Shown here: in pieces, positions 4,428-52,713 of the stretch | Layout of the letters: every line of letters starts with the position of its first letter | How positions within the stretch are numbered: the stretch's first letter is position 1 | Assembly: GCA_951406725.2 (NCBI GenBank) | Contig: OX597818.1 | Coordinates: 80,228,001-80,292,000 of the forward strand | Length of the DNA stretch: 64,000 nucleotides | Direction of reading: 5' to 3' | Origin: Octopus vulgaris | Taxonomy: Eukaryota | The notes under the pieces: generated by a model | What the model saw: the letters and a program-made list of their open reading frames with translations, nothing else | Told to the model about the DNA's origin: nothing | Database searches by the model: none | Position numbers and translations under genes: made by a program

Positions 4428-4633
4428 TATATTTGTGTGTCTGTCTCCATGCCATTGCTTGACAACCAATGCTGGTGTGTTTATGTCCGCATAACTTAGT
4501 GGTTCAGGAAGAGAAACCAATAGAATAAGTACTAGGCTTACAAAAAATAAGTCCTGGGGTCAATTTCTTCAACTAAAACCCTTTAAGGCAGTGCTCCAGC
4601 ACGGCTGCTGTCAAATGACTGCAACAAGTAAAA
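4238..4633 (+). mobile_element. tRNA-derived SINE copy
   Basis: Homologous to 31567-31965. Confidence 0.8.
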
Positions 4634-5640
4634 GTATATATATATATATATATGTATACACACACACACATATAATGTGGACTTCCCTGCCCACCCACCT
4701 TTTCTGACTCTCTAGTCCTATTCTCCCTCTTTTCAGCTGGAGAAGCTATGTATCTTCTCTTCAGCAAGGCACTTCTTTCTGTCTTTCTATCATACATTCA
4801 CCTTCTTCAATACTACACCCTTACTTAATTGAAGGAGTCTTATCTTGTGAGATACTTGATAGTGTCACTAGTGCTGGTGTCATGAAACAAAGCACCCAGT
4901 ATATTCTGTAAAGTTGTTGGCATTAGGAAGGGCATCCAACCAGTGACACCAAATCACAGCAATTATGTTAACTTGTCCAAGGTGCTTTGCCATGGGACCG
5001 AACCCCAAACCATATGGTTGGGAAGCAAATTTTTTAACTGCACGGTCACCCTGTACCTCACAGCCACATCTGTGCTATGTATGATAGATTTTCTGACATG
5101 TTTCATGGTCTTATCAGCTTTCAACTAGAGACTGGGTCTTTAGGTTTCTGTGCACTACTTTTGGGCAGTAATAACTCCTTCATTTCCTCTCCTTAATTAC
5201 AGTTAGCCAGTGTATTAAACACGGATGACTTGGTGGAACAGGTTGTGGGACAACTGGCCGAGAGGTCACTAGTATCTTGCCTCTTCCAGCAACCATTGCA
5301 TCCATGTCCATCCACTTGCCTTAAATGGTTTAAATCAATTACATATACATAATATGATGGTAAAAACTGTATGTGAAGCTTAAAATTGACATACAGTTCA
5401 AGTGGTTTTGATGGCTCCAGCAGGTTGATATGTTCAACATATATAAAGTCAGACTGTTTGAGTGCTGCTTGAATGACCCAATGGTTGAAAGGGCTTACTA
5501 ATCACTCTTTAGGTAAAGTTGTGTGTGTGTTGATTTATATATGAGCACAAGCATGACTTTGTGCTAAGAAGTTTGCATTCTAACCATATGATCTTGGCTT
5601 CAGTTCCACTGCATGGTACCTTGGGTGAGTATGGTACCAG

Positions 5641-5868: not shown

Positions 5869-6872
5869 TGGTACCTTGGGTGAGTGTCTTCTACTATAGC
5901 CCCAGGACAACCAAAGCCTTCAGAGTGGATTTGGTGGTCACAAACTGAAAGAAACCTGTCATGTGTGTACATATATATATTTACATATATAATTTGTGTG
6001 TGTTTTACTGTTTCCTTGCTTTGACTTCATGTGATTGCTGTCAAGGAATATCACTATCTTCCATGAAAACATGTCTGGTCATGAGGAATATTACCTTACA
6101 TGGAAGCAGCTGAGGGTTAGCAACAGGAATGATATCCAGCTGTAGAAAATCCACCCCAACAAATTCTGTTAGACCCATACTTGCATGGGTTGCACAATTA
6201 AACAACAATGGTTTTAAATATTATTTCCTATTGACTCTGAGCTGTCTCAGATCTAACCTGTAATGAACACTCTGTTTTAACAATGAGTAACCATGTATTC
6301 AGTTACTACCTGCTGTTAATTTGGCTGAAACATTCCACTGGCACATGCACAATTTAGATCTTAGATTAAATGGATGTGATACTGTGCAACAAGCCATGCT
6401 AGTTGAAGTACAGGTGCAATCCATCTGTTGGGCTTTCACATTGTTTCCATTTACCCAATTTCACTCATAAAATTCGGGGTGACCTGTAAATTCAAACTTT
6501 GTATGAACTTTAAATATTTTGGACACCACTAAGTTATAAAATTATAGACACAGTACTTCATCTTTATGATGTATATTCTAAGGTAAATCGGCTTGGTGAA
6601 TGCTGCTCCTCTTAATTCCAGCAATGAATTGCACCATTTCATGGTACCTATAAATTTTTACATGAACTGGTTTCTTGGCCACCAATTTTCTAAAGCCCCA
6701 GGGAAGTTTAAAAGCCAGTGCTTATCTCTGGCTTCATGGCATTAAGCAAATGATGATAATTATTTTAATCTTGATTTGAATGCTAATCTTTAAAGGCAAC
6801 ATTCCGAGAAAATCTCATTGGACCATACTTCTGTGAGTTGACTTTTTGTATGTATTAATCTATTTCTCTAAT

Positions 6873-7100
6873 TTAACCCTTTAGAAATTAAATGACCGTA
6901 TCTGACCCAAATATTCCACCTTTTTCTATGTTCAAAGTAGCTAAATTCTGCCTTTCACATCTACTCTGCTATGTCATTTTAAAAATAAGCAATCACATCA
7001 TCAAAACCTCAAAGCTATGAAATAATGGAAGATTAATTCTAGACAGTGTGAATAATTAAGCATTACATTTAACTGTGTAACCTGAATGCTAAAAGGTTAA
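6873..7100. mobile_element. piggyBac-type TTAA MITE
   Basis: TTAA-ccctttag ... ctaaaagg-TTAA; relatives at 9359-9579, 16591-16813, 44148-44516, 45987-46212. Confidence 0.75.
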
Positions 7101-7117
7101 TGTAATTAAGCTGTCAA

Positions 7118-7235
7118 TTTCACAGCCATATCATGTTTAAAACACCTATTCTCATCCAATCATTGAGATTATGCAACATGAAGCCTAGTTAGTATTTAGA
7201 TGGATTACTGCTTGTGAAACCTAGGTATTGTAAGC
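7118..7235 (+). pseudogene. Full-length decayed 5S rRNA copy (possible SINE head)
   Basis: 118 nt colinear with the metazoan 5S consensus (cagccatatcatgtttaaaacacctattctcatccaatc...gcctagttagtatttagatgg...ctaggtattgtaagc); many CpG->TpG/CpA changes; degenerate A and C boxes. Confidence 0.9.
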
Positions 7236-7440
7236 AAAACTTTTAATGGCAGTGCCCCAGTATGGCTACTGCCTCTGGCTGAAAAAATAAAAGAATGAAG
7301 AATTTGGGTTACTAATACTGTGTTTTGCTTGTGTGTTTAACTTTATCACTGAAGTCTACTATTTCAGTGGAATTACCAACAGGCTTATCATATTCAACTG
7401 TAGTTGAGAGAAAAATTATCCTCTGTTATTTTGTTAAAAA

Positions 7441-7863
7441 TAGGTGCAGGTGTGACTGTGTGGTTAAGAAGCTTGCTTCCCAACCACTTGGTTCTGGGTT
7501 CAGTCCAACCGTGTGGCACTTTGGGCATCCTCTGCTATGGCCCCAGGCTGACCAGAGCCATGCAAGTGGATTAGGTAGGTGTAAATTGAAAAACACCTAC
7601 TGTATATATGCGTGCGTGTGTGTGTTTTGTCTTCTTGTCTCGATATCATGTGATAGTTGCAAACGAGTGTCACCACCATACAGTAGTATCCTTCATTTCC
7701 AATTTTATGTGAAAACATGTCCAGCCATGGGAAAAATTTACCTTATTTGGGAACAGGTGAGGGTTGGTGACAGGAAGGACATTAAGCCATAGAAAATCTA
7801 CCTCAACAATTTCCAGCCAACCTATGCAGTGATGTAAAAGTAGTCTTAATGTTGATGATGATG
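7441..7863 (+). mobile_element. tRNA-headed SINE with RTE-type tail
   Basis: Same head as the 31567 family, different body, (GAT)n tail as in the RTE; similar copies at 12605-13023 and 14360-14790. Confidence 0.7.
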
Positions 7864-9218: not shown

Positions 9219-9358
9219 TTCTAACACCTTATATTGATATAAAATATTAACATTCTGCATTATCAGTTTACTTGTTTCAGTCATTTGACTGAAGCCATGT
9301 TGGGGCACTGCTTTGGAGGGTTCAGTCTAACAAGTCAACTTTAATACTTATTTTTTCT

Positions 9359-9579
9359 TTAACCCTTTAGCATTTAAACTGGCCATGTCTGACCCAAATA
9401 TCCTACTTACTTATGTGCAGACTGGCCTGATCTGGTATGTCACACCTATCCTACAATGTCATTCTAAGGAAAGTTACATCATCCAAATCTCAAAGCTACA
9501 AGATAATGCACGATTAATTCAAAATAATACGAATAAATAAGCATTACATTTGACAGTAATAGGAACACTAAAGGGTTAA
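9359..9579. mobile_element. piggyBac-type TTAA MITE inserted into a SINE
   Basis: TTAA-ccctttagc ... actaaaggg-TTAA; interrupts a minus-strand SINE. Confidence 0.8.
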
Positions 9580-9734
9580 AGTCTGGTACTTGTTCTGTCA
9601 GTCTCTTTCACCAAACTGCTAAGTTATTGGCAACATAAACAATCCAGCACAGAATTTCAAACAGTTGGAGGGAACAAATAAAGACACATATGCATATATG
9701 CAGAGATATAAATATGTATTTATAATATAATAAA

Positions 9735-23976: not shown

Positions 23977-24040
23977 CTGAAGATAATATCAAATTTCATC
24001 ATCCATGCTCCTCCTGGAGAGTTCAATGAAGTTTTCAATG
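23977..24040 (+). CDS. CAPZA: CAPZA exon 2 (LKIISNFIIHAPPGEFNEVFN)
   Basis: Diagnostic HAPPGEFNEVFN motif; polypyrimidine tract + ctag acceptor; gtatgt donor; 64 nt. Confidence 0.97.
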
Positions 24041-28088: not shown

Positions 28089-28808
28089 TGAGTCCCATAT
28101 CTTCTGACATTTGATCAAAAGCACACCAAGCAGATCACATCAGAAGAAAGTCTGACGTTGTTTCAGGCAGATCCACCTGGTTTCTTTGAACATTTCCTAA
28201 GCCAGGATGAGTGTTGGCTTCATCACTTTGAGCTAAGGACAGAGAGGCAGTCCATGCAATGGTAACACCTCTCCTCATCTGCTCCAAAGTAGGCCAAGGT
28301 TGTTTCATCTGCAAGGAAGGTGATGGCCTGCATGTTTTGGGATGTAAAAGGCATTGTGTTTATTGACTCTCTTCAAAAGGACCACTCCAGCAATGGAAAG
28401 TACTATGCCAACTTGCTGAGGCAGTTGCAAAAAGCTATCAAGACCAAATACCCAGGAAAATTGGTAAAAACAGTCTTGTTTCAAGATAATGCTCCAGCAC
28501 ACGTCTTTGGTTTCAGTGGCTGCTGTGCATGACTGAGGCTTTAATACCTTCCCCGTTCTCTTGATTTGGCGTGGTCTGACTTTCATCTGTTTCCCAACAT
28601 GAGAAAACACTTAATAGGGAATCAGTATTGCAGTGATGATGATGTCATATCAGCTGTTGCTGCTTAGTTACTTTTGAAGTCTTTTGAACCATTAGATGTC
28701 AGCTTACCTGGAAAGAAACAATTAGTTGAAATTAATGTATTCAAAACTTCACAGCTCTAGCATCGCTCCTTCGTAGTGAGCCTATGAACCTTTCAGCCCA
28801 ACCTCGTA
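28089..28808 (+). mobile_element. Mariner (DD34D-type) transposase pseudogene with right TIR
   Basis: *VPYLLT, DECWLHHF, KVMACMFWD.KGIVFID, QDNAPAH, SLDLAWSDFHLF motifs; end ...gaacctttcagcccaacctcg-TA. Confidence 0.9.
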
Positions 28809-31566: not shown

Positions 31567-31965
31567 GCAGGAGTGGCTGTGTGGTAAGTAGCTTGCTAAC
31601 CAACCACATGGTTCCGGGTTCAGTCCCACCGCGTGGCATCTTGGGCAAGTGTCTTCTGCTATAGCCCCGGGCCGACCAATGCCTTGTGAGTGGATTTGGT
31701 AGACGGAAACTGAAAGAAGCCTGTCATATATATGTATATATATATATGTGTATGTGCTTGTGTGTCTGTGTTTGTCTCCCTAGCATTGCTTGACAACCGA
31801 TGCTGATGTGTTTACGTCCCCGTCACTTAGCGGTTCGGCAAAAGAGACCGATAGAATAAGTACTGGGCTTACAAAGAATAAGTCTCGGGGTCGATTTGCT
31901 CGACTAAAGGCGGTGCTCCAGCATGGCCGCAGTCAAATGACTGAAACAAGTAAAAGAGTTAAGAG
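31567..31965 (+). mobile_element. tRNA-derived SINE, young near-complete copy
   Basis: A box TGGCTGTGTGG, B box GGTTCAGTCCC, body ttgggcaagtgtcttctgctatagcc, tail ggcggtgctccagcatggccgcagtcaaatgactgaaac; many relatives in the window. Confidence 0.9.
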
Positions 31966-40429: not shown

Positions 40430-41467
40430 AATCACTAGAAAAAAAGCAGAGGAATTTTCTTTCTTGATGCTCCTGGTGGCACAGGTAAAACATTTGTAAC
40501 ATTGCTTCTCTCCAAGGTAACAAAAAAAGAATTGCAGTTGCTGTACTATTGTCTGGCTTTGCAGCCACCATTCTCCCAGGAAGACGAACAGCTCACTCTG
40601 CTTTTAAATTATCACTAAACCTGGTCACAAGGGACAGTCCAATTTGTAACATAAGCAAAAATTCAGGTTCAGCAGAAGTGTTGTGCCAAAGCCACATTAT
40701 CATTTGGGATGAGTGCACCATGTCACAGAGGTGCAATGGAAGCTCTTGGTAAGACCTTACAGGACATCAGAGGCAACAACAAATCTATGGGAGGAGTTAC
40801 ATTAGTTTTATCAGGAGACTTCAGATACACATTACCAGTCATTCTGAGACGAACAAGATCTGGTGATATAAAAGCATGCATTGTCTTCACACCAATGGAA
40901 TAAAGTACTAAAATTCTCTTTCGATACTAATGTGTGAGCTTTATTACATGGAGACCAATGTGCAAAACCGTTTTCAAATTGGCTCCTCTAATTAGGAAAT
41001 GGAAAAGTACCATTTGATGGGAATGGTGATATGAGATTGGTTCATATTGTTGTCACGGTGAATTCTCCAGCTGATTTGAGGAACAGGGTATTTCCAGACT
41101 TAAGTAATAATTATAATTCACATAAATGGTTGTGAAAGGGCAATTCTTGCTCCAAAAAAATGTGGAAGTAGCAAGGATTAACCATGAGTTAATGAATAAG
41201 ATTCTAACAGTCATTAAGGAGTACAAATCAGTTGATTCAGTCTTTGATGAAAATCAAGCTGTCCATTACCCAACAGAGTTCCTTAATTTTCTTAAGCCAC
41301 CTGGAACTCCTCCACATAAATTTTTTCTGAAGGTAGGAGTCCCAATAATGCTTCAAAGAAATTTAGATCCTCCTACATTATGCAATGGGACAAGGTTGAT
41401 TGTGAAGACATTACCACCTAATGTGACAGAAGCTACCATCATCAATGGCAGTGCCTCTAGGATCTAA
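40430..41467 (+). mobile_element. Helitron PIF1-like helicase remnant (frameshifted)
   Basis: FFLDAPGGTGKTF, RTAHSAFKL, IIWDECTM, GDFRYTLPVI, LKVGVPIMLQRNLDPPTLCNGTRL; possible 5' TC end near 39544-39550 and CTAG at 41503-41506. Confidence 0.9.
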
Positions 41468-46497: not shown

Positions 46498-46560
46498 TAA
46501 ATCCTTAAATCCTAAAAATGTTTCAGCCCGAAGGCTGCGGCCATGTTGGGGCACCACCGC
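46498..46560 (-). mobile_element. Isolated LINE-like 3' tail with 8-nt terminal repeats
   Basis: Minus: ggtggtgccccaacatggccgcagccttcgggctgaaacattttt(a)aggattt-aaggattt; matches the SINE tail. Confidence 0.65.
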
Positions 46561-51714: not shown

Positions 51715-52690
51715 CCGTGTCCAGAAAAATCACCGTAAACATATTTACTGCAGGAAAGTTGTTGCCCATATAGCAAAAATTCACCGTATGGACATTGATA
51801 AAGTATATTATATCAACATTTTTTTAAAGGAATGGTAAACGGTTTATAAAAGCATTAAATAGGTAAGTCTTTATTCAACATCAAACATTAAAAAAATGTG
51901 ATGAGCTCATTTAAGACGTATGAAAATTCTAAGTAATGCTGTACAAATTATGTACTTTTGCTGCGGATTGTATCGAAGCATTTGTCTCTGAAGTCTTGCA
52001 TTAATATCACTATACTTTTTCTTCATCTCTGCTGCATCTCCTTGATCTGAATCACACATTTTCTTTCTTCCTAAATTCTCTTCCTTTTTTAAATAAGTTA
52101 TGAGTTTCCAGATATTTGGAAACATGTTAGCAATAGAGCTTTGTATTGCATTGCGAAAGCCTTCTGAACTATCGTTTGTTCTGATCATATTATTCTGAGT
52201 TCTTTCGAAAACATTCCACAATTCTATTGGAAATATTGGCTTCATTATTCACTTTCGCGTACTTCGAACTTGTTCTCCTCCTAAAGAGTGAGTTTCAAAG
52301 TAAGATACATATACTTGGAGAAAATCATCATGGTCAGTCACTTCCACAAATCCAATTGCGCTCTGGAAGAAAGGCTAATGCTGTGAAGCGTTTGAGTTCG
52401 TTGTTAAATTATACGTTTGTTTGAAAGCGCAACTTTAAACGATATCCACAATTTTGCGATGAATATTCTTAGTCATATGAAATAAACAACCTTTAATAGT
52501 TGTTGTGAATGTGTGAGAGAAAGCATTGATAGTTGCTTTCTCGAAGTCAACCATTAAGGCTTCAGGATTTAATGATTTATGTAAGCCTTTTAGGCCACTG
52601 AAAAGTTTGCTGCACGTTATTTCGGACTTACCAGGAAGCAAAACAAAAAGATGTGGAATGCTAATACTACTCATGACAATATGTAGCGTG
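51715..52690 (-). mobile_element. MULE/Mutator transposase pseudogene with a TIR-like end
   Basis: LLPGKSE, MVDFEKATINAF...IKGCLFH, FPIELWNVFER..RTNDSSEG motifs; aaaa(t)tcaccgta sub-repeats at 51725-51789. Confidence 0.85.
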
Positions 52691-52713
52691 AAAATAATAT
52701 ATATATATATTTA

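Follow-up and report, generated by a model that had tools for sequence, protein, structure and literature searches.

A decayed 5S rRNA copy joined to a retroposon tail in an octopus intron, probably a one-off chimera made by template switching and built like a minimal SINE3

A copy of 5S rRNA that runs directly into the kind of tail carried by neighboring tRNA SINEs raises a simple question: does it belong to a family of mobile elements, or is it the trace of a single accident? The sequence-only reading of this locus had proposed both, a minimal 5S-headed SINE family with no central body and a one-off chimera made by template switching. Here, we find that the element is a real and old chimera of 5S rRNA and retroposon tail, with the layout of a minimal SINE3 and no sign of amplification. 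The second proposal is now favored, and we give a probability of roughly 60% to a one-off template-switch chimera of SINE3-like architecture that did not detectably amplify. The family found no support among the copies that we recovered, but its probability is only lowered, because the test has limited power for old copies (see below).

The element sits in sense orientation in a gene for F-actin capping protein alpha, inside its first coding intron (positions 569-23976, + strand), within the window (the whole stretch of 64,000 nucleotides that was analyzed). A tblastn search with capping protein alpha places exons at 469-570 and 23977-24039 and then onward to 46815, a GT donor directly follows position 568, and one exon of the gene shares 99% identity with an F-actin capping protein alpha recorded for Octopus sinensis. 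A MITE flanked by TTAA lies 17 nt upstream of the 5S copy, outside the element (6877-7096, with inverted ends and with TTAA at 6873-6876 and 7097-7100). We take it to be piggyBac-like. It has 7 further matches in the window at 72-86% identity, and a relative at 9358-9582 abuts a headless SINE tail (9266-9339). Within an intron of the capping protein gene, fragments of a PIF1 helicase occupy three different frames (40489-41464, +); they are likely a decayed Helitron or similar element. The window also holds a mariner-type transposase fragment (28293-28529, +; Transposase_1, E 1e-14) and a weak match to a MULE transposase, below the curated cut-off (52438-52710, -).

The head of the element is a full-length but decayed 5S rRNA copy. 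The Rfam model RF00001 matches 7118-7236 on the + strand over all of its positions (1-120 of 120), with 58.3 bits for a gathering score of 38 and E 1.3e-9, and this is the sole 5S match of the Rfam scan in the 64-kb window. The copy had been described as full-length, decayed, and ending at 7235; the first two attributes stand, whereas the end was one base short. The Rfam alignment includes several non-standard pairs and the copy folds no better than shuffled sequence (z +0.52), which, together with its being a single copy, rules out a functional 5S gene. It differs from most of the overlapping 5S-like contigs that we found in public data (see below) at positions 7138, 7167, 7168, 7172, 7180, 7195, 7204, and 7206. 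At 7178, at least half of these contigs disagree with it. By the usual 5S numbering, the changes at 7167, 7168, 7172, 7178, 7180, 7204, and 7206 fall in box A and box C, and the internal promoter boxes are, to judge by their sequence, decayed. A run of four T (7241-7244) stands just 3' of the 5S copy, inside the linker that opens the tail. Oligo-T is a Pol III terminator (PMC4494074), and this run is a possible one, at which Pol III would probably halt without reaching the tail. The changes in boxes A and C and the T4 run thus argue against present Pol III activity, and an active SINE is an unlikely description of the element.

Where exactly does the 5S copy give way to the tail? The junction falls at the last base of the Rfam 5S model: the 5S copy ends at 7236 and the tail begins at 7237, in the same orientation. 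The absence of a spacer that had been noted from the sequence is thereby borne out. The tail has 67 nt (7237-7303) and the whole element 186 nt. From 8 tRNA-SINE tails of the window we made an nhmmer profile, which finds 7235-7295 (E 5.4e-7, 25.6 bits), whereas in the control, the reversed window, the best match only reaches E 0.67. In BLAST searches, the tail aligns to 4576-4637 (74.6% over 63), 31905-31964 (73.3% over 60), and, on the minus strand, 46554-46521 (79.4% over 34). The likenesses proposed earlier to 4575-4633, 31905-31965, and 46498-46560 are therefore all real. Of the 30 nt on the 5' side of the junction, only 7-9 agree with the SINE body, hence the element joins 5S and tail without the SINE body. 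There is no sequence between 7236 and 7237. The central Deu domain of the vertebrate SINE3 elements, which in DeuSINEs stands between a 5S head and a tail from a CR1 or L2 LINE, is therefore absent.

The tail opens with a linker (7237-7247, +), the start of a 5'-truncated tail, which is nearer to the longer of the tRNA-SINE tail variants (7-8 of 12 columns match in five copies). The core that follows is a two-hairpin region (7248-7284, +), to which the profile match applies and which is common to the tRNA SINE and to a headless tail at 46519-46559; it is identical to the SINE majority at 19 of 23 positions. The element ends with short A-rich 3'-terminal repeats (7285-7303, +, read from the sequence), and the intact SINE tails of the window terminate in short A-rich repeats. 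When folded, these intact tails form two hairpins (z -2.8 and -3.3); the element's own tail folds more weakly (z -1.6).

The main SINE of the window, which may be OR1 or OR2, shares the core of this tail. We assume its head to be a tRNA, following the sequence-only reading; ARAGORN found no tRNA gene in the window. It has two tail variants (e.g., 4549-4637 versus 31880-31961), which differ by an indel of 8-9 nt before the first hairpin, and before that hairpin the element's tail resembles the longer one. Its second-hairpin segment, in contrast, matches the headless tail 46519-46559 at 13 of 16 positions, versus 7-11 of 16 for 9 tRNA-SINE tails. The public contig runs contain dozens of pieces that cover the tail only, at 7244-7284. 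Past 7284, a similar A-rich repeat is present in 16, 14, and 13 of these contigs in the three runs, and 5' of 7244-7248 they carry A/C-rich sequence, not 5S. The donor of the tail was probably a third tail variant; as derived from loose contig ends, this variant has 0 matches elsewhere in the window at 3 mismatches. Relative to the octopus tRNA-derived CORE SINEs (OR1/OR2, credited to Ohshima and Okada 1994 in later papers), the element has a 5S head, no CORE region, and another variant of the second hairpin.

What is the source of such tails? Their build and their sharing among elements suggest a LINE origin. A scan of 112 of the window's frames, a part of the total, turned up no reverse transcriptase domain. 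The headless tail (46498-46560, minus strand; nhmmer E 0.003) has a perfect second hairpin with a TTCG loop and a terminal repeat unlike that of the element, and it stands ~115 nt before the last coding exon. It could represent the 3' terminus of the partner LINE, or that of some other family. Patterns of the tail had 0 matches in viral, metagenome, and prokaryote collections, and the junction pattern had 0 in metagenome contigs, all of them collections with little or no octopus DNA, so that these zeros carry no weight.

A family should show the same junction at other loci. We searched public sequencing runs with 6190-7445 and then aligned four of the 24 runs listed to 7100-7430 at 80% likeness. 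Three contig runs (X1, X12, and X20, from organisms A, C, and E) gave 91, 69, and 64 aligned records, 224 in total; X1 is possibly the source of the window itself. What follows concerns the longest 24 of these 224 pieces, and the alignment tool leaves some records out silently. Among these 24, 3 pieces are orthologues that bridge the junction, 20 cover only the 5S copy, and 1 covers only the tail. The bridging pieces all carry the 5' flank of the locus itself and span 7100-7430 (0 differences), 7100-7257 (6 differences), and 7100-7339 (2 differences). The sequence-only reading had expected many copies with the same junction if there were a family. Among the longest 24 of the 224 pieces from the three contig runs, there is no paralogous junction; all occurrences belong to the orthologous locus of three organisms, as labelled in the runs. 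Its presence at all three orthologous loci implies an insertion older than the split of these organisms. In the orthologue of organism C (run X12), the alignment stops at 7257 with 58 letters left and there is no depth beyond 7303, likely due to a lineage-specific indel inside the tail. A run of raw reads with the species label of X1 (X22) had 0 of 12.9 million reads aligned, multicopy parts included, and so does not count for or against a family.

The pieces restricted to the 5S part are informative in another way. Among the 20 listed, 11 extend to 7233-7236. Eight of these 11 continue for at least 29 letters without aligning to the tail; from their shared coordinates, we count these eight as about six loci. 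The longest 5S paralogue piece among the 24 is identical to our copy at 92 of 115 positions. No joints between 5S and tail pieces were reported in the three contig runs. The shortest listed pieces have 47-55 nt, which makes it unlikely that an unlisted piece includes the tail and more than ~10 nt of 5S. Each of the three runs has dozens of dispersed, decayed 5S-like contigs over 7118-7236, and another 5S-headed element could lie downstream of them.

Could some of these run-on pieces betray a longer 5S-headed SINE, of which the copy in the window has lost the body? The eight listed pieces that continue into unknown sequence are compatible with this, and the 5S SINEs described so far usually carry a body (PMC3531059 and PMC4824008). 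Yet one would then expect joints of 5S, further letters, and tail, of which the three runs reported none, and the deletion must begin exactly at the 3' end of the 5S copy. We regard such a remnant as very improbable.

How large a family could have gone unseen? We ran simulations of families whose master is unknown and used blastn in place of the alignment tool. The chance that a copy yields a bridging piece varied from 0.7% to 98% overall. At word size 15, it was 0.7-4.9% per copy when the query was 18-22% and the copies 12-16% away from the master, and 6% when the query was 14% and the copies 16% off. As a control, 0.03-0.08% of simulated tRNA-SINE tails passed at word size 15. The density in the window implies several hundred thousand tails, of which this rate should have let through more pieces than the few dozen that each run gave; the tool is therefore at least as strict as simulated. 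We thus consider a family unlikely if it is young or has thousands of copies, whereas an old family could have escaped us if its copies number in the tens to a few hundred: with a detection of 0.7-6% each, the observation of 0 allows roughly 50-400 copies, and more if the tool is stricter.

The alternative to be weighed most carefully is thus a small, old, and inactive family of body-less 5S-headed SINEs, with tens to a few hundred copies, that used the LINE of the tRNA SINE. A 5S copy and a tail suffice as the architecture of a SINE, the tail variant of the element is unlike that of the main SINE, and these genomes have many decayed 5S-like contigs. Furthermore, a randomly encountered copy should more often be a family member than a unique event, and the giant squid has ~24,000 5S-derived loci, called likely SINEs (PMC6962438). 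This size-biased sampling and the loci of the giant squid are the reasons why we keep the family as a serious minority view. It has to be reconciled with the lack of paralogous junctions among the listed pieces of the three runs, with the fact that, of the 8 listed 5S pieces that keep their 3' end and extend beyond it, 0 continue into the tail, and with the T4 run. In Amphioctopus fangsiao, moreover, only 26 SINE/5S, 15 5S-Deu-L2, and 48 5S-Sauria-RTE hits are listed, for 308,559 tRNA-Core hits, in a library-dependent count from another genus (PMC9795677 Table S5).

Retroposons often favor A/T-rich targets, and the two halves could also have arrived separately, e.g., a 5S retro-pseudogene followed by a truncated SINE or LINE inserted into its A/T-rich 3' end, or in the reverse order. 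Our search for target site duplications (TSDs) gave a best score of 4, for a null median of 4 and a 95th percentile of 6. There is thus no TSD above chance that encloses both parts, with or without the neighboring MITE. The copy is old, and clear TSDs are absent on most of the 7 full SINE copies in the window. Tails are also dense (13 profile matches at E < 0.01 in 64 kb). Still, two insertions would both have to fall on one strand, with an extreme truncation and with a junction no more than a few bases away from the 5S end. The chance of a same-strand adjacency within 5 nt is ~8e-5 per 5S copy if one assumes 2 headless tails per window and no target preference, which could raise this figure. 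On reading the sequence by eye, unscored, no TSD is evident around the tail alone. The two halves look similarly old, as suggested by the identities of the tail core and of the longest 5S paralogue piece given above. This similar age and the position of the junction at the exact 3' end of the 5S copy favor one event, and we find two insertions improbable. Since no TSD rises above chance, the single event is favored rather than demonstrated. No empty site occurs among the orthologous pieces either, as 3 of 3 carry the junction.

The chimera most likely arose by a template switch. A LINE reverse transcriptase would have been primed at the intronic site on an RNA ending in the two-hairpin tail, would have copied ~65 nt of it, and would then have switched onto a cellular 5S rRNA at its 3' end and copied it to the first base. 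The expected product is a whole small RNA, in sense, located 5' of a retroposon end that has lost most of its 5' part, a layout known from the U6/L1 chimeras. Such a product would also bring together the parts of a minimal 5S SINE, i.e., an internal promoter and a tail for recognition by the LINE. RNA ligation before reverse transcription would be an alternative route to the same, indistinguishable product. Both parents are multicopy on their own, as a template switch requires.

How does the element compare with known chimeras? In 10.1101/2025.02.02.635956 and PMC4494074, chimeras of small RNAs and LINEs (U6/L1 and 5S/L1) have, like the element, the small RNA 5' of a truncated retroposon 3' end. 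In humans, those with L1 are described as unique events that do not propagate themselves; the 5S/L1 ones are often truncated and antisense, whereas the U6/L1 ones have a full-length, sense layout (10.1101/2025.02.02.635956). The element shares with the U6/L1 type a whole small RNA, in the same sense, that abuts a retroposon 3' end with nothing in between, and, among the pieces listed, an apparently unique locus. Its whole, sense 5S copy thus resembles U6/L1 rather than human 5S/L1. It differs from both in that no TSD was found and in its tail, which is not L1 but the octopus tail with two hairpins and tandem repeats at the end. The tailless 5S rRNA retropseudogenes (PMC5322556) are also dispersed dead 5S copies made by LINE machinery, but they are truncated at the 3' end, whereas here the 5S copy is whole and has a retroposon tail.

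The closest architecture is that of SINE3 elements (zebrafish SINE3-1, AmnSINE1, CoeSINE5 of the coelacanth, and HaSE3 of Lepidoptera), which have a 5S-derived head with an internal Pol III promoter and a tail in common with a tRNA SINE. According to PMC5786205, HaSE3 and HaSE1 in moths and CoeSINE5 and CoeSINE4 in the coelacanth form head-swapped pairs, with 5S or tRNA heads and a common 3' part. The 5S heads themselves are proposed to have originated when copying switched from a SINE to 5S rRNA (PMC4824008). The element differs from SINE3 in having neither Deu nor another body, in its decayed promoter, in the T4 before the tail, and in being seen at a single locus among the pieces listed. 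By the SINEBase definitions, its size and dispersal are those of a SINE (<1 kb, interspersed, and non-tandem: 186 nt, one copy in 64 kb, intronic). So is its head, for which at least 60% identity to 5S rRNA over at least 60 nt is expected: 5S-like contigs align to it at ≥80% over up to 115 nt. We do not file it as a SINE, for which PMC3531059 sets a rule of 100 copies, as the junction occurs at one locus among the pieces listed.

Is such an element new? None of the papers listed by our literature searches describes an octopus 5S SINE; Repbase, Dfam, and the SINEBase supplements, which our search did not cover, may describe one, and the 1994 octopus SINE and 2015 genome papers, likewise outside it, may bear on the matter. 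The portions available of PMC10886601, PMC4758252, PMC9115989, PMC6472339, PMC5322556, and 10.1101/2023.05.16.540928 do not describe any. We hold it only tentatively possible that the element represents an undescribed, old, low-copy octopus SINE family made of a whole 5S and a 67-nt LINE-recognition tail and born by a head swap. If so, it would be a minimal, body-less SINE3 in a mollusc, with a tail common to the dominant tRNA SINE. Such a family would bring SINE3, reduced to its simplest form, into the cephalopods, and could be relevant to the 5S-derived loci reported in the giant squid. As the one-off chimera that we favor, the element would be a tidy and unsurprising case, with no function indicated, from an invertebrate system that does not involve L1 and in which the whole 5S was captured in sense. 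It would then be a fossil of the step that is thought to create 5S SINEs, the switch from a retroposon tail to 5S rRNA.
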